Assembly (NCBI GenBank): GCA_963825525.1
Contig: CAWGTN010000002.1
Span: forward strand, 64,001 to 128,000
Direction of reading: 5' to 3'
From: an uncultured Chloroflexia bacterium
Lineage (GTDB): Bacteria > Chloroflexota > Limnocylindria > QHBO01
Length of the DNA stretch: 64,000 nucleotides
This document shows, one piece after another, positions 589 through 61,888 of the stretch (positions are counted from its first letter, which is position 1; each line of letters starts with the position of its first letter). The notes under the pieces were generated by a model. It ran no database searches. It was not told the DNA's origin and was given only the letters and a program-made list of their open reading frames with translations. A program made the translations under genes and the position numbers.

Positions 589-1005
589 TCAGCCGCCGTA
601 CTTGAGACAGGCGCGCGCGAACGAGAGGAGGCCCTCGAGGGAGCGATCGTCCGCATCGCTGGTGGCTGTGAGCTCGATCTTGGGTTCCTGCGCGACCAAC
701 CGCCACACCGCCTTGTCATGGCCGGTGACCTCGTCGATCTGGGAGTCACTCTGGAGCCGCAGGCCGCTGAGCGACGCCCATCGGACCGCCTGGCCACGGA
801 GGATCCATGATCCGCTCGGATCGGCCCCGGCGGGCGTGTACGTGAAGTCGAGCAGCCCGATGTCCGTCGCCACCAGAACGCGCATGCGGCCGCTGTCCGG
901 ATGCACCCCGACATGCGCGGCGTACTCGTCCGCCCGCAGCTCGCCCATCTGACGCTGGATCAGGCCCCGGGCCTTGCCCAGGTTGTCCCACTCACCGATC
1001 TTCAT
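589..1005 (-). CDS. Hypothetical protein, 138 aa
   Basis: Clean ORF with globular composition; TAGGCT lies 8 nt upstream of the ATG. Confidence 0.7.
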   Translation of the reverse strand: MKIGEWDNLGKARGLIQRQMGELRADEYAAHVGVHPDSGRMRVLVATDIGLLDFTYTPAGADPSGSWILRGQAVRWASLSGLRLQSDSQIDEVTGHDKAVWRLVAQEPKIELTATSDADDRSLEGLLSFARACLKYGG

Positions 1006-1038
1006 GGCGGCGCAGCCTAGCAGTTGCGGGCGCGGTCA

Positions 1039-4000
1039 TCAGGCCCCGGGTGCCGAGAGCGCCTGCAATCTGCGGCGAGGCAGCGGGAGCCGGCCGACCG
1101 CGACGATGGCCTCCACCGCTTCGTATGGCACGGGCCGCGAGAAGTGGAAGCCCTGGCCGAGCTGGCACCCGCGAGCCTTCAGGGCGAGCAGCTGGGCCTG
1201 GGTCTCGATCCCCTCCGCCACCACCTCGAGCCCCATCGTGGACGCCATCTCGAGAATCGTCTGCACAACCGCTCCCTCTGGCTCTTGCGTGATGCGGGAG
1301 ATGAAGCTGCGGTCGATCTTCACGATGTGGAACGGCAGGTGACGGAGGCGCCCGAGCGAGGAGTAGCCGGTTCCGAAGTCATCGAGGGCCAGGCGGACGC
1401 CCAGCTTGCGGAGTTGGCGGAGCTCGCGAAGCGCGGCGAGGTTGTCGCCGATGATCGCGGTCTCGGTGATCTCGATCACAAGCAACCCGGGCTCGAGGCC
1501 GCTCTTGCGAAGTGCGGCACGCACGTCGGGAACCACGGTTCCCTGCGCGAGCTGCGACGCGGACACATTCACCGCGACGTGGAGCGGTCCCTCGGATGCG
1601 GCGTTCCACTCGACCGCGCGCCGGCAGGCCTCCCCCAGCACGAACTTGCCGATGGGGCCGATGAGGCCCGTCTCTTCGGCAAGCGAGATGACCTCGGTGA
1701 CCGGCACGAACTGGCCGTCGGGATCACGCCAGCGAAGCAGCGCCTCGAAGCCGGTCACGGTGCCGTCGCGCAGGTCCACCATCGGCTGGTAGAACACCTC
1801 CAGCCGCTCATCGGCGATGGCACGCGCCAGGTTTGCCTTGAGCTCGAGCCGGCGAAGTGCCTGCTCATGCATGCGTGCCTCGTAGAGCTCGAACCGTGCC
1901 TTGCCGCGCTGCTTCGCGACATACATCGCGAGGTCCGCGTTGCGGAGCAGCTCCTCCGGGCGAGCGGTTGCCTCGAGGTCCACCGCGATGCCGATGCTGA
2001 CGTGGACCTGGACCTGCTTGCGCATCACGCTGAACGGCCGCTCGAACGCTTCCATCAGGCGCGCCGCCACCGTCTGGGGGGTCTCGGACACGACGTCCTC
2101 GAGGAGGATCGCAAACTCGTCGCCGCCGAGTCGGGCCGCGGTGTCGACCGGCCGCAGGAGCCGTTCGAGCCGACGCCCGACCGCCACCAGCAGCGCGTCG
2201 CCGGCACTGTGCCCCAGGCTGTCGTTGATCGTCTTGAAGTCATCGAGGTCCAGGAACAGGACGGCGAGTCCGGCGTGCTCGCGGCTGGATCGGTCGAGCG
2301 CGTGCTGCACGCGATCGGAGAACAGGGCGCGGTTTGCAAGGCCGGTGAGCGAGTCGTGCAGCGCCTGGTGGCGGAGCTGGCCCTCGAGCTCCTTGCGGGC
2401 GGTGATGTCGTCGATGAGCGCGTTGAACCGCACGGTCTCGCCGTCCTCGACCGGCCAGATGGTCAGCTCGACCGGGAACCGATGGCCGTCGCGGTGCATC
2501 GCCTCGAGCTCCATCCGACGCGAGAGGATGCGGCCCTGCCCGGTGGCGGCGTAGCGGCGCATCCCGTCGTGATGGGCGACGCGCTGCTCCGGGGGGATGA
2601 CGAGCTCGGCAAGGTCGGCGCCCATGGCCTGATCACGCGTCCATCCGAACGTGTCCTCGGCCTGCTGGTTCCACTCGACGACGTGACCCTCGGACTCGAT
2701 GGCCACGAATGCCAGGCTGGCGGTGTCGATGATCATCCGCTGCTGCTCCTCGCTGGCGCGCAGCGCCTCCTCGGCCACCTTCGCGGCGGTGATGTCGATC
2801 ATCAGGCCCTGGAGGAGCGGCTGACCGTCGTCGCCCTCGGTGACCGCAACGTCATCGAGGATCCAGACCGTGCGCCCGTCGCGGCGGATCATGCGGTACT
2901 CGAAACGAGTCGTGGCGCCGGGATCGACGGCGGCGGCATCGGCATTGACCACCGACTCGCGGTCGTCCGGATGGATGCTCTGCGCCCATAGGAGGGGATC
3001 CGCGATCCACTCTGCCGGGGCGTAGCCGAGCATGCCCTCGATCTGCGGGCTGACAAAGTGCCACCGACCGGTGGGGCCGGGCTCGGCTCGGTACACGACG
3101 CCCGGCTGGCGCTCGACGAGTGATCGGTATTTGACCTCGGCGCTGGAGAGCTCCGCGGCCAGCTGCTGCTCGCGACGGACGGCTCGCTCGCGGTCGCGGA
3201 GGAGCACGCTCTGGCGAACGGCAACGGTCAGCAGCACGAGACCCATGGCCGCGACGTTGACGACGTTCATGGGGCTGGGCAGTGGCCTGAGGAAGTGGAT
3301 GGCCATGAGCCCCGGGGTGAGCGCCACGGCCGCGATCGGCATCGCCGAGCGCATGCGCGCTGCGCGTCGGGCGTATGTGGGGTTGTCGTCCACGGCGTCG
3401 GTCCAGGTCGCAACGCCCAGGGCGATAAGGACGATCCCAACGGACAGAAGCACCGGCGCCACGAGCGGATCGGACATCCGATCCGCCGTGGGCAGCGCCA
3501 GGCGGGACAGGAAGCCGATCCCGAGCGCAAAGAGGCCGGCCAGAACGACGAACGCACCGTGCGGTTTGCGCTCCGCGCGAACCGCGAGATGCAGGAGAAG
3601 GGTCGCGAGCATCGTCGCCAGGAAGAAGACGGCGTAGGCGAGGTTGATTCCTCCGGCCGGCGTGCGGGCAGCATCATGGCCGAAGAGGGTGATCATGAGA
3701 GACGCGGTCGCAAAGAAGACCATCGCGCCGTCGAGGTAGACGGCGGCCTCGTCTGTCCATGCGACACGACGCCGGATCGTCACCCAGTACGACGCGGCGG
3801 CGCACGCCAGCACGCCGACGAATGGAGCGTCGGATACGGCAGGGGTGGACACCACTCCGGCCACCGCCTCGACGTTGCGAATGAGCTCGCCGAGCAGCCA
3901 GAGGCCCATGGCCACCGTCATCAGGTAACGCACCCGGCGCACGCGGCCGGTTGTCTTTCGGAGGGCGAGCATGCCGAGCACGAACGCGAAGCCGGCAGCC

Positions 4001-4164
4001 ACGGTCAGCTCGGCGCGTGCCAGTGCGCTGCCGATGGGCGCCGGCGAGATTGCGGCGAGCACGGCAAGCACGCTGATGACCACGATCCCGGCCAGGATGG
4101 TGGCTCGAGCGTCAGCAGGCAGTCGCAGGAAGGCAGCCGGCATCGCCGGCCCACGTCGTGTCAT
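1039..4164 (-). CDS. Membrane-anchored PAS-PAS-GGDEF-EAL diguanylate cyclase/phosphodiesterase
   Basis: Multiple N-terminal TM helices, two [44 protein letters not shown]; start codon uncertain (4185/4164/4143). Confidence 0.93.
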
Positions 4165-4253
4165 GCCCCCATCGGCTTCGCGCACCTCGCGTTATTCGTC
4201 ATCAGGCTAGGAACCAGCCTCACGTCCGGCCATGGCCCATATGGCCTACTGCG

Positions 4254-4259
4254 TACAAT
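4254..4259 (+). promoter_or_regulatory. -10 box (TACAAT) of probable leaderless gatB transcript
   Basis: TACAAT 6 nt upstream of ATG 4266, no Shine-Dalgarno. Confidence 0.6.
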
Positions 4260-4265
4260 CGGCGC

Positions 4266-5744
4266 ATGCCCGCCAGCACACGCACCGAGTACGAGACCGT
4301 CATCGGCATCGAGGTCCACGCTCAGCTGCGCACCCAATCGAAGATGTTCTGCCCGTGTCCGACCGCACCACCGGACGGTGGTGCCGATGAGCCCAACTCC
4401 CGGGTCTGCCCCGTCTGCATGGGAATGCCCGGTACGCTGCCGGTGATCAACCGGCGTGCGGTGGAGCTGGTGATGCTGACCGGACTCGCCCTGAACTGCC
4501 GGGTGGAGACGGAGGCCGTTCGGTTCGAGCGGAAGAACTACTTCTATCCCGATCTCCCGAAGGGATACCAGATCAGCCAGTACGCGCTGCCGCTGACCAG
4601 TGGCGGTCAGCTGGCGGTCCCGGTGCCTGCCGAGAACGGGGAGGTGACCGTCGGAATCACGCGCGCCCACCTCGAAGAGGACACGGCGCGGATGCAGCAC
4701 GCGGGTCGGGGCTACAGCGTCGTCGACTTCAACCGTGCGGGCGTGCCGTTGATGGAGGTGGTGACCGAGCCCGACATCCGCACTCCGGCCCAGGCCCGCG
4801 CCTACGGTGAGACGCTGCGGGAGCTCCTCCGGGCCATCGGCGCCAGCAATGCCGATATGGATGCCGGCTCCATGCGGATCGAGGGCAACGTCAGCCTCCG
4901 ACCGCGTGGCACGACCACGCTGGGCACGAAGGTCGAGGTCAAGAACCTGAACAGCTTCCGATCCCTGGAGCGGGCGCTCGAGTACGAGGTGGCGCGTCAT
5001 GCCGAAGCGCTCGATCGTGGTGAGACCCTCGTCCAGGAGACTCGTGGCTGGGACGAGGAGAACGGACGCACCATCATCCAGCGCTCGAAGGAGGAGGCGA
5101 ACGACTACCGCTACTTCCCCGAGCCGGACCTGCCGCCGCTGCGTCCATCCGAGGCGTGGGTTGCCGAGCTCCGCGCCGGCCTGCCCGAGGTACCCGCCCT
5201 TCGCCGGGCTCGCTACGTGGATGAGCTTGGATTGTCGGCCTACGACGCCGGAGTCCTGACGTCTGACAACGCGCTGGCCACGTACTTCGACGCGGTGGTG
5301 GATGCCGGAGTCGCGCCCAAGAGCGCAGCCAACTGGATCACCGGCGAGTTCAGCCGGCTGCTCAACCAGCATGCCGCGCGCGGCCTCCGTGCCGACGACG
5401 TCGCTCTGCGTCCCGAAGGCATGGCCATCCTCATCGGCGAGGTCGAGGAGGGAAGGGTGTCCGGCACGAATGCGAAGGCCGTGCTGGCCGCCGTGTTCGA
5501 GTCGGGCGAGGATCCGCGCGCCGTGATCGAGCGTGATGGACTTGGACAGGTCAGCGACTCGGACGCCATCGGTCGCGAGATCGAGGCCGTCATCACCGAG
5601 TTCGCCGGCCAGGTTGCCGAGTACCGCTCCGGGAAGCCGCAGCTCTTCGGGTTCCTGGTCGGGCAGGTCATGAAGCGCACCGCCGGGCGGGCGGACGCCA
5701 AGCTCGTCAACGCCGAGCTCCGCCGTCGGCTCGAGTCCGAATGA
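4266..5744 (+). CDS. gatB: Asp-tRNA(Asn)/Glu-tRNA(Gln) amidotransferase subunit B
   Basis: [61 protein letters not shown]. Confidence 0.98.
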
Positions 5745-56041: not shown

Positions 56042-56242
56042 ATGACCTGGGAGCAGGCGGAAGAGACCGCACGGCCGGTCCTGAAGTGCCCGCTATGCGG
56101 CGGCACCGAGTTCGACCAGGAGCAGGGTCGGATGGACAGCCGATGGGGCATCACCAGCCACAAGCTCGTCCTTCAGATCTGCCGGACGTGCGGCCTGGTC
56201 CTCCAGTTCTCGGCCGGCCGCGGGATCTTCGACTTCGACTGA
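56042..56242 (+). CDS. Small zinc-ribbon protein, 66 aa
   Basis: CPLCGG...CRTCG; AGGAGG RBS. Confidence 0.8.
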   Translation: MTWEQAEETARPVLKCPLCGGTEFDQEQGRMDSRWGITSHKLVLQICRTCGLVLQFSAGRGIFDFD

Positions 56243-56244
56243 GC

Positions 56245-56841
56245 GTGTTCGATCGGCTTCCGGGACCGATGCGCCGATGGCTGTACGCCGGTGGCACCCG
56301 CCAGGATCGGTTGCGTGATCCCGATGCGGTCGTTGCCGCCCTCCGGCTGCGTCCCGGGATGGTGGTTGCCGACCTCGGCCCGGGCTACGGCCACTTCACG
56401 CTCCGGATGAGCCGCGCCGTGGCGCCCGACGGGGTCGTCTACGCGCTCGACGCGAGCCGGACCACCCTCGACGAGCTTCGGCAGGCGGCCGAAGAACGAG
56501 ATGTCACCACGATGAAGTTCGTCGAGATTCCGCGTGACCGCCTGGTCGTGCCTGAGCCGGTCGACCTGCTCTTCGTCTCAGCCACGTACCACCACCTGCC
56601 CGACCCGGCAAGGTACTTCACCGAAGCGCGAGCGCTCCTGAAGCCCCGCGGGCGCCTCGTCATCCTTGAAGCGCGGCGCGAGGGCGTGCTCGCCCAGTGG
56701 CGTGGGCGGCATGCGACATCGCCCCGCCGCGTCGAGCGTGAGATGCGCGAGGCGGGGTACCGGCTCGTCGACACCCACGCTCTCGTGCCGGGCCACCTGT
56801 TCGCGGAGTTCACCGCCTCGCCGCCCGGGGATCGCAGCTAG
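56245..56841 (+). CDS. Class I SAM-dependent methyltransferase
   Basis: VADLGPGYG, VYALD, YHHL, LKPRGRLVI. Confidence 0.88.
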   Translation: MFDRLPGPMRRWLYAGGTRQDRLRDPDAVVAALRLRPGMVVADLGPGYGHFTLRMSRAVAPDGVVYALDASRTTLDELRQAAEERDVTTMKFVEIPRDRLVVPEPVDLLFVSATYHHLPDPARYFTEARALLKPRGRLVILEARREGVLAQWRGRHATSPRRVEREMREAGYRLVDTHALVPGHLFAEFTASPPGDRS

Positions 56842-59165
56842 GGGGACGGCGTCGGGCTGGGGGAGGGGCTCGGGGTGGGGCTGCTCGTCGGCGTCGAGGT
56901 CGGCCGGCTGGTCGGCGTCGCGGTGGACGCCGCTGAACCCGACGGCGACGGCGACGACGAGGAGGATGGTGTCGGCTGCGTCGTCGGGCTCGACGTTCCG
57001 GCCGGCGTCCCGCTCGGGCTCGGCGTCAGCGTCGGCCCCGGCGTTCCCGACGCACCGACGGACGACGACGCGGAGGGTGACGGCGTGACCTGCGGCGTGA
57101 CCCCCAGGATGGCGATGATCTCCGCCTTGTAGTCCTCGAACTGTGCGATGACATCGGCGAGGGGCAGCGTGGGGATGGTCTCGGCGAAGGCCGCGATCTC
57201 CTCCCACAGATCGGCGAGCGATAGCTGCTGCTCCTGATCGGGCAGGGAGTCGATCGTCACCACCAGCTGGCTCGCGACGGCTGCCGTGATGCACTCGAAG
57301 CACTCGTAGTTCACCGCCGCGCTCAGGTTCTGCGGGACGATGACGTCGGCGTGCCCGACGATGACCACGACCTGGAAGGCCACCGCGACGGTGACGCAGT
57401 CGCTGCAGCTCGCGAACGCGTACGCCTCGTTCGTGTTGAGCACCGGGTCCTCGCCGGTGACCCAGACCATTGCCACGGCCACGTCGTACTGGGCCGTGCC
57501 GTCGCTCGTGTTGACGGAGATCGCCTGGTTGTCTCCCGGGTCGGGCGGCAGCGGCTCGTTGAACGGGAAGACCCATGCGGGCTCGGCGGTACCACCGGGA
57601 TCGGCTCCGTCGCCTGCGCCATCCGACTCGCGCGGAACGAGGACCAGCGCCATCTGTGGCTCGTCCTCGGTCGGCCGCGGGCCGCCGTCCGACATGAGCG
57701 TCAGCACCTCGCCACCTCGGGCGGTGGTCGTTGGCGGCCGATCGAAGCCTGCTGCGCCCAGGGGAACATTGGCGACGCTGAAGATCGTCCCATCCTCGAA
57801 CGGGCTCACCGGGCGATAGCGCTCGGCGCCTGGCCACCACGCGAACGCGAGGGCCACGACGGCGGCGAGTACGAGCGCTCCGGCACCCGTGCGACGCACG
57901 GGCCGGCCCTCGGTCCGGCGCCACAGGCTGCGCACGATGCCGTAGACCACCCGGCCCAGGACGAATCCGATCGCCAGGATCGGGAGCGTCACGACCGCCA
58001 TCGCGAGAACGGCGCCGGCGGCATCGATGAAGGCTCCAGCCGCCAGATGCGCGCCCGCCCGCCCCCATTCGCGGCCGATGCTGTCGAGGGCAGTGCCGAT
58101 GATGCGCGGCGCCGCCAACACCATGGCGAACAGTGAGAACGCGAGCAGGGGCACCACGACCAGCACCCACAGGGTGACGATGATCCGAACCCACCACTTG
58201 AGTTGCGCGACGCGCGGATCGTTCCAGCGGCCCGGCCAGAAGGAGGTCAGGATCGGCCATATCCGCGAGAAGAGGTCGGGCACGCCGGTGACGTCGGCGA
58301 GGACGTGGTACCCGTCGAACCGCACGAGCGGGGCAAGCTGGCGGATCATCTGAAGGATCTGGGCGGCGATGATCAGGAGCAGCGCATCCCAGCCGGTGAC
58401 CCACCAGGCCGCGGCGATGGCGACGGTGACGATCGCGTTGAAGTACAGGCCACCGAGGTCGGTGCGCAGGCGGGCTGCCCGACCCAGGCGATAGGTATCG
58501 GTCACATCGGTGTAGAAGGCTGGCCAGAGCAGGAACCAGCCGGCTCCCATCGCGCCCGGTTGGGCTCCGCCACGTCGGGCCGCGGCCGCATGGCCGAACT
58601 CGTGGAAGCCCGCCGAGAGGATCGTGATGACGAGGACGAGTGCCAGAAGGTCCGGCTTGGCGAACGCCTGGTACGTCGCTGACGCCAGGCCCTGCTCGGC
58701 AAGGAGCCACCAGGCGATCCATCCAAACAGGGCGATCAGCGGGATCCAGGCCAGGGGATGGAACAGGACCGTGAACGGGGCGGTGATCCGACGCGTGAGG
58801 GCTGGATCGGTCACCGCGAACCGCAGCTTGAGCCCGGTCAGCGGATTGGACCGCTTCAGCTCCGGGATCGATCCATCTGCGCCGAGCAGCAAGCCGCGCG
58901 GCCGCAGCTGCTTCTCGGCGAGCGTCGCGACATCGGAGGCCGAGATCCGGCGGCCAGTGCGCTCGGACACGAGCTCCGCGATCTCCTCGTGGCCCCGCTG
59001 GCCGTCAACCGCATCGAGGACGGCGTACAGCAGGGGCGTCAGCTGGAGGGTCTGGCCGTCCTGCCGGCGGACCAGGGCGGGCGGTACGCGGTACCCCGAC
59101 CCCTCCATCTCGCCGATGAGCTCGAGGCCGTCCGGGCGCACCGGGACGTCAGCGACCATCGCCAT
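56838..59165 (-). CDS. PqqD/RRE-like + M50-type membrane zinc metallopeptidase + CxxC beta-repeat domain (YydH-like peptide zinc metalloprotease)
   Basis: N-terminal LTPLLYAVLDAVDG....EIA wHTH; FHEFGHAAA; PAFYTDVT; GGLYFN; PLVRFDGY; C-terminal NEAYAFASCSDC and NLSAAVNYECFEC repeats; S/T/P tail. Confidence 0.85.
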   Translation of the reverse strand: MAMVADVPVRPDGLELIGEMEGSGYRVPPALVRRQDGQTLQLTPLLYAVLDAVDGQRGHEEIAELVSERTGRRISASDVATLAEKQLRPRGLLLGADGSIPELKRSNPLTGLKLRFAVTDPALTRRITAPFTVLFHPLAWIPLIALFGWIAWWLLAEQGLASATYQAFAKPDLLALVLVITILSAGFHEFGHAAAARRGGAQPGAMGAGWFLLWPAFYTDVTDTYRLGRAARLRTDLGGLYFNAIVTVAIAAAWWVTGWDALLLIIAAQILQMIRQLAPLVRFDGYHVLADVTGVPDLFSRIWPILTSFWPGRWNDPRVAQLKWWVRIIVTLWVLVVVPLLAFSLFAMVLAAPRIIGTALDSIGREWGRAGAHLAAGAFIDAAGAVLAMAVVTLPILAIGFVLGRVVYGIVRSLWRRTEGRPVRRTGAGALVLAAVVALAFAWWPGAERYRPVSPFEDGTIFSVANVPLGAAGFDRPPTTTARGGEVLTLMSDGGPRPTEDEPQMALVLVPRESDGAGDGADPGGTAEPAWVFPFNEPLPPDPGDNQAISVNTSDGTAQYDVAVAMVWVTGEDPVLNTNEAYAFASCSDCVTVAVAFQVVVIVGHADVIVPQNLSAAVNYECFECITAAVASQLVVTIDSLPDQEQQLSLADLWEEIAAFAETIPTLPLADVIAQFEDYKAEIIAILGVTPQVTPSPSASSSVGASGTPGPTLTPSPSGTPAGTSSPTTQPTPSSSSSPSPSGSAASTATPTSRPTSTPTSSPTPSPSPSPTPSP

Positions 59166-59193: not shown

Positions 59194-59224
59194 GCCGCGC
59201 AGGGTCACCCGAACCCCACGCGGC
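59194..59224 (-). terminator. Intergenic hairpin between the repeat protein and the peptidase
   Basis: GCCGCGUGGGGUU-CGGGU-GACCCUGCGCGGC, a 13-bp stem including G-U pairs. Confidence 0.6.
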
Positions 59225-59237
59225 GCCGTTGTCCGAG

Positions 59238-59963
59238 CTACTGGCTGATCTCGGAGTCCTGGTCCACGACTGCCGAGCTGTCGCCGTCGATCGACTGGTC
59301 GATGATCGCGTCCTGCACCGAGACGGCGGTCGCGCTCGACCCGATCGACCCGACGTTGGCGGCCACGGCTGCATCGATCGGGGCGGCCACGTTGGCGTTG
59401 GCCGCCACCGCACCCGCGATCGGCGCGGTCAGGTCCGCATCGGCCGCCAGGTTGACGTCGATGTTGAGCAGGTCGCCGCTCAGCATGTCGCCGGCGTCGA
59501 CACCGGTGACCGAGTCTCCGGCAACTGCGCCCGCAGCACCGGCCGCGTCGTCGACCGCGCCGCTGCCATCGGCGAGATCGGCGGTTCCGGCATCCGCATC
59601 GGCGCCGGCGTCGACACTGTCGGACGCCTGGTCAATGTCGCTGGCCTGTGTCGCGGCCGCCGAGGCATCGCCCACGATGCCCTGCGTGATCATCACGCCC
59701 TGGTCGCTCAGCGCCTGGGCGGTGGAGCCGGCGGAGAGGACATTCGCGCCCACTGCGGCATCGATCGGGGCGGCGACATTGGCGTTCGCGGCGACCGCCA
59801 GGTCGACCGGTGCCGCGAGATCGAGCGCAATGTCTGCGTCGACCTGCAGGTCGAGGATCGAGACGACTTCCTTGTCCGGAAGCGCGGTGACCTCTTCGGC
59901 GGCCAGCTCGTCCGCGGTCAGGCCCTTGGTCGGGTCGGTATCGTGAGAAGCGTTCGTGCTCAT
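59238..59963 (-). CDS. 241-aa acidic repeat protein with RiPP-like leader and two 77-aa amyloid-like repeats
   Basis: AAGGGGA RBS; leader LTADELAAEEVTALPDKEVVS; repeats share AVAANANVAAPIDAAV.ANV.S.GS.A.A.S.Q...I.Q. Confidence 0.85.
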   Translation of the reverse strand: MSTNASHDTDPTKGLTADELAAEEVTALPDKEVVSILDLQVDADIALDLAAPVDLAVAANANVAAPIDAAVGANVLSAGSTAQALSDQGVMITQGIVGDASAAATQASDIDQASDSVDAGADADAGTADLADGSGAVDDAAGAAGAVAGDSVTGVDAGDMLSGDLLNIDVNLAADADLTAPIAGAVAANANVAAPIDAAVAANVGSIGSSATAVSVQDAIIDQSIDGDSSAVVDQDSEISQ

Positions 59964-60206
59964 TGTTTCCCCTTGTCTGCTCACCCCGAGTGCGGGGTCG
60001 GCATCGCTGGAAGCACGATGCGTGCCGAAATGCCGGGCCGGTGCACGGCGCGTGCCCGAGTGGGCGCTTCGTGGTGCGCCCGGTCGACAGAGACGGACCG
60101 GCACCGGAGTTGCGGGCGCTTCGGACATTGCCGCGGTAGGAGTCGCAGATATCCCACCCCTCTCGGTGCGCCGAAACAGTTGGTTTCGCTGGCGCATCTG
60201 TGACAC

Positions 60207-60752
60207 ATGAACCCATCGACCGATGTCGTTCGACGGGACCGCCCAGCGTCGGGTGCTGACCTGATCCGACGAGCGGGGTCCGGTGACCGCGATGCATTGG
60301 CAGCGCTGGTGGATGCGCACCACGCCGACATGCTGCGCGTCAGCTTCGTCGTCTGCGGGGACCGCGACATCGCCCGTGACGCTGTGCAATCCGCCTGGCT
60401 GCGAGCTGCGACGCGGTTGGGCTCTGTCCGAGATCACACCCGCGTGCGCGCTTGGCTGTGCTCGGTGGCCGCCAATGAGGCCCGGATGGCCGTCCGTCGG
60501 CGGCGACCGACTGTCCCGGTTTCGGCTCTGGACGACCACGTCGCGGAGCGCGGTATGCCCACGGCAGCCGCGTTGGACCTCGTCGCGACGCTGGAGAGCC
60601 TCGACATTCAGGATCGTCAGCTTCTCGCGCTCCGATACATCGCCGGCTTCAGCTCGACGGAGCTGGCGGACCACTTCGCCATCACCCCGGCTGGCGTTCG
60701 CAGCCGCCTGAAGCGCCTGCTCGATCGGCTACGGAAGGAGCTCGACCGATGA
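60207..60752 (+). CDS. ECF sigma-70 factor
   Basis: GDRDALAALV, ARDAVQSAW, RAWLCSVAAN, LALRY..GFS..ELA, VRSRL.R. Confidence 0.9.
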   Translation: MNPSTDVVRRDRPASGADLIRRAGSGDRDALAALVDAHHADMLRVSFVVCGDRDIARDAVQSAWLRAATRLGSVRDHTRVRAWLCSVAANEARMAVRRRRPTVPVSALDDHVAERGMPTAAALDLVATLESLDIQDRQLLALRYIAGFSSTELADHFAITPAGVRSRLKRLLDRLRKELDR

Positions 60753-61888
60753 CCGACCGATCACAACACCCCGACCCGTTTGAGGAGGCACTGGCCGCCT
60801 CGCTGGAGCGATACACCGCCGATGTCGACGTCACCGGTGACGCGTATGCAATGGCAGATGCGATGCTCGGGGTGCGCCGACAGCACCGCTTCCGCATCGG
60901 CCTGGGTGCGGTCGCGGGCGGGCTCGCCACGGCGGTACTGGCCGTGATCGCAATCGGTGCGCTTGCGGAGCCGCAACCCCAGGTGGGACCCGCTTCGACG
61001 GAGTCGCCCCGAGCGACCGAGTCGCTGCAGCCGACGGAGGGTTTGATTCCGTCGCCGGAGCCGAGCGCCGAGACGCTCCCTGGTGTCGAGGCACCCGAAG
61101 CCTGCGGGTTCCCGGAGGGCACTGGGCTCTCGTACGCGGGCCGCTCGACGACGGCCAGACGCGGCGTCCAGGAGGTCGTGGGGGACAAGTGGAGCTTCGA
61201 GCCCGCCGACATCTACATCACCAGCGAGAAACAGGAACAGGCCAATGGGATCCGCGGGCGGCTGGTCTGCGCAATCTTCGTCAATGCGGACTTCGTCGAG
61301 GTCACCATGCATCCCGAAGATGGCGGGCGGTTCTCCCCCGCCCCCGAGTCGTCTGTCTTCGAGGCGACATGCTCACCGTCCCCGACTCCCGCACCACGGT
61401 CCGGCGACGAGCCGTACGTCGTCACTGCGACGGAACTCTGGGAGGCGGGCCAGTGCGGAGACGCGCTCGCCAGGTACGGCGGAGCCGATCTGACCCTCGT
61501 GGCTTACCCGTCGGGCCTGAACGGGGTCGTGGATCCGTGCCCGTCCCTGGAGCCGCCCTGGTTCCAAGACTGTTCGGTTGATGCGGTGGTCTTCCTTCGT
61601 GCGCCGGACGCACCTCGAGACGAACTTGGTCTGGGACCCACGGCCGCGGCTGTCATCCATCCGGACCTTGGCGCCCTGCCGGACATCCGGGACGACCTTG
61701 GCCTGGAGCCCGGAGCGACGACGCTCATGCGGTTCACCGCCCACTTCGACGACCCGGCCGCGTCCGAGTGCCGGTACGAGGAATGGAACGGGGGTCTAGG
61801 ACCGTCACCGACTCCCGGTGAGGTCGTTGAGGAGTGTCGCAGTACGCTCGTCATCACGGCGTTCGAACCTGTCGAGCCGTGCCGATGA
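60749..61888 (+). CDS. Putative anti-sigma factor (single TM, Cys-containing extracellular domains)
   Basis: ATGA overlap with the ECF gene; short cytoplasmic N-terminus, RRQHRFR followed by a TM helix, P/S/T linker, HFDDPAASEC...ECR. Confidence 0.72.
   Translation: MTDRSQHPDPFEEALAASLERYTADVDVTGDAYAMADAMLGVRRQHRFRIGLGAVAGGLATAVLAVIAIGALAEPQPQVGPASTESPRATESLQPTEGLIPSPEPSAETLPGVEAPEACGFPEGTGLSYAGRSTTARRGVQEVVGDKWSFEPADIYITSEKQEQANGIRGRLVCAIFVNADFVEVTMHPEDGGRFSPAPESSVFEATCSPSPTPAPRSGDEPYVVTATELWEAGQCGDALARYGGADLTLVAYPSGLNGVVDPCPSLEPPWFQDCSVDAVVFLRAPDAPRDELGLGPTAAAVIHPDLGALPDIRDDLGLEPGATTLMRFTAHFDDPAASECRYEEWNGGLGPSPTPGEVVEECRSTLVITAFEPVEPCR

Follow-up and report, generated by a model that had tools for sequence, protein, structure and literature searches.

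In the daptide pathway, as outlined in a preprint (bioRxiv 10.1101/2023.03.08.531785), the protease MpaP joins an RRE and a site-2 protease in a single fused protein; it removes an acidic leader that ends in Pro. SpoIVFB is described as using beta-augmentation to cleave the N-terminal pro-sequence from a whole protein, with H43, H47 and D137 as its ligands (PMC11486902), and an M50 protease of the EpeP type, encoded together with its ribosomal substrate, has been proposed both to cleave and to export that substrate (PMC10885120).

Within the 64,000-nucleotide stretch of DNA analyzed here (the window), two adjoining minus-strand genes, P0001 and P0002, invite comparison with these systems. On balance, we take them to form a two-gene module in which P0001 is a leader-bearing precursor and P0002 its dedicated maturation protease; P0001 looks like a protein-sized relative of the leader-processed peptides of bacteria. 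The region that had drawn attention to the locus (59241 to 59858) runs from the end of R2 to the start of R1 of a single minus-strand ORF, P0001, with the following features.

59238 to 59963, minus strand: gene P0001, stop codon included, encoding an acidic Ala/Asp-rich protein of 241 amino acids (leader, R1, linker, R2)
59871 to 59924, minus strand: leader core, amino acids 14 to 31, GLTADELAAEEVTALPDK; family logo G-L-T-P-E-E-L-x-A-E-x-x-T-A-L-P-D-K-E, invariant columns
59628 to 59858, minus strand: repeat R1, amino acids 36 to 112
59472 to 59627, minus strand: A/D/G-rich linker, amino acids 113 to 164, differing in length and sequence among homologues; pLDDT below 50
59241 to 59471, minus strand: repeat R2, amino acids 165 to 241, the last Gln of the repeat being the end of the protein

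P0001 is a genuine gene, with a Shine-Dalgarno-like AAGGGGA ahead of the ATG, at least 3,636 relatives at an E value of 1e-3 or lower among 8,000 candidates scored, invariant Asn and Gln columns (see below), and a GC3 bias seen in the neighboring gene. The relatives form 385 clusters at 50% identity. The whole protein contains 60 Ala, 36 Asp, 25 Val, 22 Ser, and 20 Gly residues, has a net charge of about -37, and is devoid of Arg, Cys, Phe, Trp, and Tyr. Its only Lys residues (K13 and K31) and its only His (H7) all lie within the first 35 residues, which bears out the claim that Lys, Arg, His, Cys, and aromatic residues are missing after the leader. The N terminus is acidic and lacks a hydrophobic stretch, and no Sec signal peptide was found. 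Database searches left P0001 without a known family: Pfam-A (hmmscan, E of 1 or lower) returned Gasdermin only (E 0.17) and no Curlin repeat, NCBIfam returned no family match at E of 1 or lower, the family profile had no match among PDB sequences at E of 10 or lower, and PADLOC assigned neither P0001 nor P0002 to a defence family. ESM Atlas, queried with stored P0001 homologues, yielded only the family itself and no structure. The locus shows no GC anomaly, and an origin as a genomic island was rejected on that ground.

The two repeats align without gaps and are identical at 43 of 77 positions, whereas 10,000 shuffles of R2 against R1 gave a mean of 9.9 and a maximum of 21 identities, with none reaching 43; the two gap-free 77-residue repeats of the original prediction thus hold. 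The G/A/D linker described between them consists of 52 residues in which A, D, and G dominate, together with some S, V, and T. Each repeat had also been said to contain two APxxxAVxAN units, and all four can be read in the sequence (APVDLAVAAN and APIDAAVGAN in R1, APIAGAVAAN and APIDAAVAAN in R2). As to the two GxxxAxxxQxxxIxQ-like units per repeat, the second fits exactly in both R1 and R2 and the first has Ser for Gly, so that the qualifier "like" was well chosen. The conserved Asn and Gln columns were found as well: 30 close homologues show no variation at N60, N62, N74, Q88, Q94, or Q106. A C-terminal Gln is present in 119 of 129 two-repeat homologues.

Compared with 2,000 shuffles, the autocorrelation of P0001 alternates with period 2 and rises to peaks at lags 6, 12, 14, and 18 (z 2.1 to 3.8), the repeats having sub-periods of 14 and 18 residues. 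Across 466 distinct repeat copies, the per-column entropy of amino acids 80 to 112 alternates strictly between conserved and variable. These patterns support the view that the repeats behave as beta-strand sequence. The AlphaFold monomer, which had been suggested as a check, gave a mixed answer: it contains long beta-hairpins (strands 81 to 97 and 100 to 111, and 210 to 226 and 229 to 240), at about 65 pLDDT only, but its mean pLDDT is 55.4 and its pTM 0.27, the AP/ANAN half of the repeats falls below 50, and a Foldseek search with this low-confidence model found no match in the PDB. With such a model, the proposed beta-rich fold rests on sequence periodicity. The amyloid or beta-solenoid character that had been suggested is supported in part, by the strand-like conservation, the hairpins, and the uncharged N/S/A/Q core of short relatives, and gains nothing from the poor monomer model. 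Mean-field DCA on the 466 repeat copies (Neff 96), in which the mixing of R1 and R2 paralogues is a confounder, gave no interpretable contacts, and hhalign detected no relation of the repeats to the P0002 C-terminal domain, its RRE, or PqqD (P 0.036 to 0.84).

The leader, which had been mentioned without interpretation, is the most informative part of P0001: it is a conserved, putative recognition tag that goes with an intramembrane metalloprotease carrying a fused RRE. The motif LTPEELxAExxTALPDKE is near-invariant at the N terminus of the family, and 174 of 185 homologues keep a spacing of 31 residues from LP to ANANV. Two variants (P0192 and P0209) carry a spacer of about 200 residues between leader and repeats, which marks the leader as a separable module. 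The same leader occurs on much shorter products. In one genome (G411), two ORFs of 64 and 66 amino acids with ..EL..E...LLPARETL lie upstream of an RRE-M50 homologue, with no modifying enzyme nearby. Such short leader peptides fall into 18 clusters, measure 63 to 78 residues in the alignment compiled (A5), and, in the 64-residue relatives, have an uncharged, N/S/A/Q-rich core. Their profile matches that of P0001 in hhalign with a probability of 86.8 (E 4.3e-6), compared with a P of 0.14 for the reversed control and 0.069 for the best of 20 column shuffles; the leader on its own gives a P of 1e-4, and the core on its own is only weakly alike (P 1.9e-3). An ILDLQ-like motif in P0001 presumably resembles the leader of class III lanthipeptides; this likeness was set aside because there is no Cys in P0001 and no LanKC nearby.

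The second gene of the pair has the following predicted features.

56838 to 59165, minus strand: gene P0002, encoding 775 amino acids (RRE, M50 intramembrane metalloprotease, CxxC domain, PT-rich tail)
58875 to 59126, minus strand: PqqD-like RRE, amino acids 14 to 97, three strands and three helices (hhalign, AF2, VIA)
57834 to 58811, minus strand: site-2 protease core with about seven TM segments, amino acids 119 to 444 (NCBIfam, invariant residues, topology, VIA)
58590 to 58604, minus strand: HEFGH, amino acids 188 to 192
58305 to 58319, minus strand: QxxPxxxxDG with D284, in the core
P0002 amino acids 203 to 221: re-entrant hairpin (AF2 strands 203 to 211 and 214 to 221)
57096 to 57833, minus strand: predicted extracytoplasmic domain, amino acids 445 to 690, with two duplicated CxxC units (C587, C590, C622, C625)
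56841 to 57095, minus strand: Pro/Thr/Ser-rich low-complexity tail, amino acids 691 to 775; pLDDT about 30

Profile and structure comparisons identify the predicted N-terminal domain of P0002 as a PqqD-like RRE. Amino acids 14 to 97 match the PqqD profile in hhalign (probability 85.9, E 5.9e-7; controls 0.1 or lower), the AF2 model of the domain has a pLDDT of 87 to 91, and VIA places it closest to lasso B1 with leader (Z 8.8), TbiB1 with leader (8.2), and PqqD (7.0), the matches also including the RREs of MibB, CteB, MccB, ThcOx, TbtB, and LynD. Amino acids 5 to 97 share their fold with the lasso B1/E proteins and PqqD (PDB 6jx3, 5v1u, and 5sxy, two of which contain a bound leader peptide), but P0002 carries the domain as part of a membrane protease, and the Pfam PqqD model misses it. 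A Foldseek search with the whole P0002 model returned PqqD at a probability of 0.98 and TbiB1 with leader at 0.87; these two rows alone are meaningful, the rest of the output being dominated by long-helix transporters at an rmsd above 20 Å. Winged-helix DNA binders (VanR and Nur) match the domain at Z 6.2 to 6.4, so the fold alone is not specific.

The core that follows is predicted to be a site-2/M50 protease whose catalytic residues are intact. Among NCBIfam models, P0002 scores best against daptide_HExxH NF041824 (E 9e-31, 107.3 bits against a cut-off of 300, profile positions 19 to 289 of 379), and YydH/LiaK NF058609 matches at E 3e-7; amino acids 119 to 444 reach E 1.9e-22 and 6e-8 against the two models, respectively. 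Residues H188, E189, H192, Q276, P279, D284, and G285 are invariant in 28 P0002 sequences and correspond to HExxH, located in a TM helix, plus xxPxxxxDG, which we take to be the defining site-2 motifs. In VIA, the core is most similar to the SpoIVFB:pro-sigmaK complex (Z 9.2, rmsd 4.0 over 132 residues), with RseP at Z 8.4 and 7.5 and mjS2P at 7.6. Hydropathy and K/R-rich loops predict that the active site is on the cytoplasmic side. The Cys residues of the C-terminal CxxC domain are invariant in the P0002 family, and the domain is internally duplicated (probability 76, P 2e-5). A search for it in other contexts gave 222 matches, all of them fragments of the P0002 family itself, and G411 encodes it as a stand-alone protein whose N terminus is signal-like (hhalign probability 94.2, E 1e-7). 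The conservation of this domain, its predicted position outside, and its occurrence in G411 as a separate signal-bearing protein suggest that the system acts across the membrane.

The pairing of the two genes is strict. At 79 of 80 loci, the P0001 homologue is immediately followed on the same strand by a P0002 homologue; at the sole exception (L005), the sequence ends 130 nt after the P0001 homologue. Among 60 full-length loci, only the pair is conserved (59/60 and 49/60), the next cluster (13/60) being an antisense artefact. No transporter is conserved near P0001 at these 60 loci; the 6 kb to each side hold no conserved modifying enzyme, and the window has none. The neighbors of P0001 in the window comprise the M50 protease, an ECF sigma factor, and others, and the protease alone is conserved. 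The upstream ECF sigma/anti-sigma pair, considered as regulator or substrate, was rejected and left out of the module, since the sigma factor recurs at 1 of 80 loci and the anti-sigma factor at none; a convergent methyltransferase recurs at 2 of 80. In the family of Nocardioides koreensis (G002, which holds locus L018), 16 of 121 genomes encode P0001, all 16 with an adjoining P0002, and 103 encode neither.

The scan found the module in at least 529 species genomes; it is widespread in soil Actinomycetota and present in some Chloroflexota, with cultured carriers in Nocardioides, Blastococcus, Arthrobacter, Pedococcus, Actinokineospora, and Mycolicibacterium. A quick tree put 4 Chloroflexota rows in one clade (branch 0.7) apart from 50 Actinomycetota rows, with no sign of recent interphylum transfer in this sample. 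The public runs containing the module are soil metagenome DNA, and no RNA run was listed among them. Homologues of P0001 are named "peptidoglycan-binding protein" in databases and those of P0002 "hypothetical" or "M50 family metallopeptidase"; in the literature searched for its motifs (main texts), no earlier description of the module was found.

Two candidate regulatory elements accompany the pair.

60012 to 60027, minus strand: sigma-54-type -24/-12 element (candidate promoter), CGGCACGCATCGTGCT, about 50 nt upstream of the P0001 ATG
59194 to 59224, minus strand: 13-bp G+C-rich stem-loop without a U tract, between P0001 and P0002 (predicted by folding); candidate attenuator or mRNA stabilizer

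The window and 6 Chloroflexota loci share the pattern GGCACG-N4-xTGC without variation, against 51% identity in the rest of their upstream regions, and the genome (G000) contains rpoN and one bEBP; as a single-sequence match, the element is not above chance. At most loci a strong hairpin follows the stop codon of the P0001 homologue, with a median of -31.2 kcal/mol (80 loci), compared with -18.9 in 77 coding control windows. This is compatible with high expression of a structural gene and lower expression of the enzyme gene behind it.

In the mechanism we propose, the cytoplasmic PqqD-like RRE of P0002 would bind the P0001 leader LTPEELxAExxTALPDKE, and the segment KEVVSILDL... would be brought, as one more beta-strand, up to the re-entrant hairpin and to the HExxH/Asp zinc site, which is predicted to lie on the cytoplasmic side of the membrane. 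Cleavage would remove the leader, leaving two very acidic, beta-rich domains of 77 residues on a floppy linker. After its release, this product would most probably be transferred to the exterior, the side on which P0002 is predicted to display its CxxC domain, and it could serve there as a plentiful surface protein with a structural or cation-binding role, possibly in stacked-beta, fibre-like assemblies. We infer the binding, the cleavage and its site, the export, the final assembly, and the function of the product; the beta-rich product is probably exported, and fibre formation is plausible.

Compared with the daptide pair MpaA/MpaP, as far as the preprint describes it (bioRxiv 10.1101/2023.03.08.531785), P0002 has the same order of an N-terminal RRE and an HExxH intramembrane core, and the leaders (ELExMEAP in daptides, EELxAExxTALP in P0001) are both acidic, with a hydrophobic pattern and a Pro. 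P0002 differs by an additional three TM helices, by its CxxC outside domain, and by its PT tail, and its 107.3 bits fall far below the 300-bit equivalog cut-off. P0001, for its part, has 241 residues and a C-terminal Gln, whereas the daptide precursor is described with an invariant C-terminal Thr, and no oxidative decarboxylase, aminotransferase, methyltransferase, or ABC transporter is conserved at P0001 loci, the MpaB/C/D/M enzymes being absent from the neighborhood. The EpeX/EpeP system (YydF/YydH; NF058609), in the account given in PMC10885120, likewise encodes an M50 intramembrane protease with its substrate, and P0002 matches its model; P0001 loci, however, have neither a radical-SAM epimerase nor an ABC transporter, the presumed substrate here is a large repeat protein, and P0002 carries an RRE and an outside domain. 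Like SpoIVFB acting on pro-sigmaK in Bacillus subtilis (PDB 8vjl), P0002 is proposed to be a site-2 protease that removes an N-terminal pro-sequence from a whole nonmembrane protein, and SpoIVFB, the top structural match of the P0002 core, has the same re-entrant beta-hairpin beside HExxH. According to the published description (PMC11486902), SpoIVFB differs in having a CBS domain rather than an RRE, a sigma factor as substrate, control by BofA and SpoIVFA, and a cytoplasmic product.

Several observations weigh against the precursor-protease reading. With its 241 residues, P0001 greatly exceeds the known RRE-guided substrates in size. Taken by itself, the RRE domain scores only E 0.06 to 0.09 against NCBIfam models and nothing in Pfam, PqqD included; P0002 reaches 107 of 300 bits; and Pfam Peptidase_M50 (PF02163) matches at E 0.72 with 9.6 bits, below the gathering score of 27.2. 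To these come the low-confidence P0001 model, the weak core-only likeness to the short peptides, and, as regards export, the lack of a signal peptide in P0001 and of a conserved transporter nearby.

An alternative that we consider improbable is a release into the cytoplasm, as with pro-sigmaK: the leader would tether P0001 to the membrane protease, and the cut would free an acidic soluble protein serving as a cation buffer, nucleic-acid mimic, or regulator, with neither export nor fibre. Since P0001 has no signal peptide and its loci no conserved transporter, the product could indeed stay cytoplasmic; the active site is predicted to face that compartment, the closest solved structure is SpoIVFB with a substrate released there, and the net charge is about -37. 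A purely cytoplasmic pathway, however, would have no need of the predicted-outside CxxC domain that is always part of the system, whether fused or as a separate secreted protein. The total absence of Arg, Cys, aromatics, and postleader Lys would also be unusual for a cytoplasmic protein, and the pentapeptide periodicity of DNA mimics is absent (lag 5, z -0.7 and -1.0).

P0001 might instead be a true multicore RiPP precursor, whose repeats are modified by enzymes encoded elsewhere, or excised as separate peptides, before or after leader removal. The RRE-protease architecture of the daptide pathway, the two repeated "cores" with invariant N, Q, D, and S columns that could be modification sites, and the tandem copies of the short relatives, as in RiPP precursors, all speak for this. 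P0001 has the distinct conserved N-terminal leader and the adjoining RRE protein of a RiPP precursor but neither a co-encoded modifying enzyme nor a size under roughly 100 residues. No such enzyme is conserved at the 60 loci or found in the window or the G411 variant, and the repeats lack Cys and Lys as well as, in most members of the family, the residues on which common cross-linking chemistries act. We hold this reading to be distinctly improbable.

That P0001 binds peptidoglycan, as the RefSeq name on WP_406829741.1, WP_253889647.1, and others would have it, is very improbable, since the name has no visible evidence behind it, no such or other domain appears in Pfam or NCBIfam at E of 1 or lower, and there is no signal peptide.

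The repeats of curli CsgA and Fap proteins are imperfect, and in them Gln/Asn columns are conserved and small residues alternate. P0001 shares these traits, a predicted beta-strand-turn-strand per unit, and sub-periods of 14 and 18 residues. Membership in these families, the homology that the original prediction had hinted at, is nevertheless refuted to the point of being extremely improbable, although P0001 may yet resemble them in its way of working: no homology is detectable in Pfam or NCBIfam (E of 1 or lower) or, with the family profile, in the PDB (E of 10 or lower), there is no Sec signal, no curli- or Fap-type accessory gene (csgB/E/F/G type included) or outer-membrane secretion gene occurs in the window or across the 60 loci, the net charge is extremely negative, and the family is found in Actinomycetota and Chloroflexota, beside a partner gene of quite another kind. 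We know of no curli or Fap family matured by an RRE-M50 protease.

Returning to the precursor-protease module, a bolder extension of it, which is possible though unlikely, is a new surface-fibre route: an unmodified protein-sized leader substrate would be recognized by the RRE, cut by the site-2 protease, and passed outward by the same membrane protein, whose CxxC domain would take up the acidic beta-hairpin repeats or nucleate their assembly into cation-binding fibres with Gln/Asn ladders; the uncharged 64-residue peptides of the sister system would be the minimal subunits. If true, this route would bring leader recognition of the RiPP type and the biogenesis of functional amyloids together in Actinomycetota and Chloroflexota.

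If the module works as proposed, RRE-guided leader recognition would reach from small natural-product peptides to a repeat protein of 200 residues without a modifying enzyme, and P0002 would be a site-2 protease with both a cytoplasmic substrate recognition domain and a conserved outside domain. The pair would offer a two-gene test of the coupling of cleavage to export by M50 proteases, and P0001 would stand as a concrete candidate for an acidic surface fibre or a cation-binding protein of a new class among soil bacteria.

The repeats that the original prediction placed at 59241..59858, two 77-residue units with curli/Fap-like periodicity, are contained within a single minus-strand ORF encoding P0001, a 241-aa acidic repeat protein with the following parts.

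59238-59963, minus strand: P0001 ORF, 241 aa
aa 1-35: N-terminal segment of 35 aa
aa 36-112: repeat R1
between R1 and R2: A/D/G-rich linker of 52 aa
aa 165-241: repeat R2, the C-terminal end of the protein

The duplication was confirmed: the gap-free alignment of R1 and R2 has 43 identities out of 77 (maximum of 21 in 10,000 shuffles), and autocorrelation revealed alternation with period 2, peaking at lags 6, 12, 14, and 18 (z 2.1-3.8). The sub-motifs named previously were also found, and the composition is as extreme as claimed: P0001 contains 60 Ala and 36 Asp, lacks Arg, Cys, Phe, Trp, and Tyr altogether, and has Lys and His only within the first 35 positions. Since some variants carry a low-complexity spacer of ~200 residues between leader and repeats, while the linker varies freely in length and in other variants is expanded by unrelated short repeats, P0001 consists of separable parts, namely leader, R1, linker, and R2. 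Among the long forms (P0130, P0133, P0192, and P0209; genomes G326, G393, and G404), some have GxxxGTLDxxTGxV-like linker repeats and others the leader-R1 spacer; G393 holds two cassettes, one with an expanded linker and one with a ~200-aa leader-R1 spacer. In three Mycobacteriaceae loci (L036, L041, and L068), an additional acidic G/T/D/S-rich tail extends beyond the terminal Gln of R2.

The family is large. A word-indexed search yielded at least 3,636 relatives (E<=1e-3) among 8,000 candidates scored, an exhaustive search at the level of 50%-identity representatives gave 385 clusters (278 with E<=1e-10), and at least 529 encoding loci turned up when one genome per species was scanned. Sequence searches of Pfam, NCBIfam, PADLOC, and PDB assigned P0001 to no family; RefSeq calls its homologs "peptidoglycan-binding protein," and no such domain was detectable in these searches. 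The best 80 of the at least 529 loci comprise 8 from Chloroflexota or Limnocylindria MAGs and 72 from Actinomycetota, including cultured Nocardioides, Blastococcus, Arthrobacter, Pedococcus, Intrasporangium, Actinokineospora, Planosporangium, and Mycolicibacterium.

What sets P0001 in context is its neighbor, P0002, which follows it on the same strand. The surrounding features are listed here.

56838-59165, minus strand: P0002 ORF, 775 aa, 72 bases downstream of P0001
57096-57833, minus strand: P0002 outside domain, whose four invariant Cys form two duplicated CxxC units
60012-60027 and 60042-60057, minus strand: two candidate sigma-54-like -24/-12 elements upstream of P0001
60207-60752, plus strand: ECF sigma factor gene (TIGR02983-like, E 2e-23), upstream of P0001 and divergent
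60749-61888, plus strand: 379-aa gene overlapping the ECF sigma gene, with no Pfam family and a weak NF038083 match (E 0.033)

A P0002 homolog lies directly after the P0001 homolog in 79 of the best 80 of at least 529 loci, the sole exception being a locus that ends 130 nt past the P0001 gene. Independently, 121 genomes from the family of Nocardioides koreensis (G002) were sampled: P0001 was present in 16, all with P0002 at adjacent coordinates; one genome carried two cassettes, 103 had neither gene, and two (G342 and G411) had a P0002-type match without P0001. The G342 match is a fragment from an unpublished genome, and no result rests on it. No further gene family was conserved around the pair in 60 loci with full flanks. 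The 379-aa product, which has a hydrophobic stretch (by eye, unscored), GLGAVAGGLATAVLAVIAIGALA, is probably the anti-sigma factor of the ECF sigma factor, but this couple is not conserved with the module, with the sigma gene near a P0001 homolog in 1 of 80 loci and the putative anti-sigma gene in none. A SAM-dependent methyltransferase gene (56086-56841, plus strand) is convergent with P0002 and abuts its end; found at just 2 of the 80 related loci, it is probably unrelated. In most loci, the first gene is followed by a strong stem-loop, with a median of -31.2 kcal/mol versus -18.9 kcal/mol in controls.

As a single sigma-54-like match in the window is not above chance, support for the candidate promoter comes from conservation: the proximal element, GGCACG-N4-xTGC, is invariant in the window and in 6 of 8 Chloroflexota loci, and is absent from the 72 actinobacterial loci. 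G000, the genome holding the window, encodes rpoN (G000:C1:103305-103748) and one clear bEBP, far off at G000:C2:1397244; rpoN is missing from three actinobacterial carriers. In the phylum of the window, the module is rare: of 301 genomes sampled, 2 have it (G000 and one broken copy), and it was found in none of 15 same-family and 2 same-genus genomes. Its distribution there is patchy, yet GC at the G000 locus showed no anomaly; in a quick tree, the Chloroflexota copies formed one clade apart from Actinomycetota.

P0002 combines an N-terminal PqqD-like RiPP recognition element (RRE) with an M50 site-2 protease. The NCBIfam models nearest to it are that of the daptide intramembrane metalloprotease, at E 9e-31 and 107 bits (cutoff, 300 bits), and that of the YydH/LiaK epipeptide protease, at E 3e-7; the membrane part alone gives 1.9e-22 and 6e-8, respectively. 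HEFGH (188-192) and Q276-x-x-P279-x-x-x-x-D284-G285 are invariant in 28 aligned homologs. Hydropathy and K/R-rich loops predict about seven TM segments with the N terminus inside, both motifs at the cytoplasmic face, and residues 445-775 outside. The family profile of the N-terminal domain matched a 23-sequence PqqD profile over 76 columns (probability 85.9, E 5.9e-7; reversed, C-terminal, and TM controls, <=0.1). In the AlphaFold model (mean pLDDT 68.9, pTM 0.58), residues 15-87 fold into three strands plus three helices (pLDDT 87-91), the TM core is confident (pLDDT 83-93), and a hairpin (203-221) follows the HExxH helix. Exhaustive structural comparison of this model placed residues 119-297 closest to SpoIVFB bound to pro-sigmaK (Z 9.2), with the core also matching RseP (Z 8.4 and 7.5) and M. 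jannaschii S2P (Z 7.6). Residues 5-97 matched lasso B1 with leader (Z 8.8), TbiB1 with leader (8.2), PqqD (7.0), and the recognition domains of MibB, CteB, MccB, ThcOx, TbtB, and LynD (6.2-7.7); Foldseek concurs (PqqD, prob 0.98; TbiB1, 0.87). The outside domain, confined to this family in a search for other contexts, holds an internal duplication at aa 570-645 of a ~35-aa unit, N-x-A-x-A-x3-C-x-x-C-x-T-x-A-x-A-x-Q-V-V (hhalign prob 76, P 2e-5); it was poorly modeled, with no confidently predicted fold.

The likely counterpart of the RRE is the leader G-L-T-P-E-E-L-x-A-E-x-x-T-A-L-P-D-K-E-V-V-S, the most conserved P0001 stretch outside the repeats in 30 close and 44 more diverse homologs. Of 271 fetched proteins, 185 were judged full-length; in 174 of these, LP and the first ANANV are spaced 31 residues apart, and the median net charge of the 185 is -37; 119 of 129 two-repeat homologs end in Gln.

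G411 carries a variant of the system at locus L118 (G411:C1:183500-189500).

635-1381, minus strand, divergent: SARP/BTAD-type regulator
1994-2188: first leader-bearing peptide, 64 aa, N/S/A/Q-rich
2229-2429: second leader-bearing peptide, 66 aa, N/S/A/Q-rich
2365-4908: RRE-M50 protease fused to a MinD/ParA-like ATPase
4905-5633: separate CxxC-domain protein with a signal-like N terminus

The protease (E 1.9e-123 over P0002-family profile positions 15-444) differs from P0002 in having no outside domain and in its fusion to the ATPase. The CxxC region of the separate protein aligns with the outside domain of P0002 (probability 94.2, E 1e-7), and this separately secreted counterpart supports the predicted outside location of the latter. 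No modifying enzyme is present at the locus. Both peptides carry ..EL..E...LLPARETL, and their uncharged core, rich in N, S, A, and Q, terminates in Gln(-Gly); 18 clusters of such short peptides exist. Their profile matches that of the P0001 family from the leader to Q94-G95 (probability 86.8, E 4.3e-6; leader alone, P 1e-4; core alone, P 1.9e-3), compared with P 0.14 for the reversed control and 0.069 for the best of 20 column shuffles. A shared leader on differing substrates beside related RRE-proteases is the pattern that leader-guided processing should produce.

We lean slightly toward P0001 being a precursor cut by its own dedicated protease, P0002. Passages in bioRxiv 10.1101/2023.03.08.531785 describe the daptide protease MpaP as an RRE fused to a site-2 protease that removes the leader, passages in PMC11486902 describe SpoIVFB as cleaving the pro-sequence from a whole protein once this sequence adds a strand to a re-entrant hairpin, and part of a review (PMC10885120) presents the M50 protease EpeP as thought to both cleave and export its own peptide. 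Combining these precedents with the anatomy of P0002, we propose that the RRE would bind the P0001 leader in the cytoplasm, that the segment downstream would dock onto the hairpin at the zinc site, and that the leader would then be cut off. The product may then be exported. An abundant extracellular product fits better than a cytoplasmic one, given the outside domain, the PT-rich tail, the stem-loop, and a composition of cheap small residues with no Lys or Arg past the leader, no Cys, and no aromatics; against export, P0001 has no signal peptide, and no conserved transporter lies nearby.

Whether the product assembles into fibers is a separate matter. Across 466 distinct repeat copies, per-column entropy shows conserved and variable positions in strict alternation over aa 80-112, the pattern expected of strands that bury one face. 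AlphaFold placed long hairpins over this region, with pLDDT <50 in the AP/ANAN half of the repeats and a low-confidence model overall (mean pLDDT 55.4, pTM 0.27) that has no structural neighbor in PDB. So poor a model would match a protein that folds only on stacking and, equally, a badly sampled family. No confident helical or disordered prediction, of the kind that would count against the amyloid-like idea, emerged; fiber formation itself is hypothetical. Taken alone, we regard fiber assembly as doubtful; the full route, in which the RRE and site-2 protease pass P0001 outward into new acidic surface fibers, ranks lower still and is unlikely.

No earlier description of the module was found in the literature searched. 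The finding is real, and its context is more interesting than the repeat alone: P0001 and P0002 constitute an uncharacterized, widespread two-gene module in which RiPP-type leader recognition and a site-2 protease probably act on a 241-aa acidic repeat protein.
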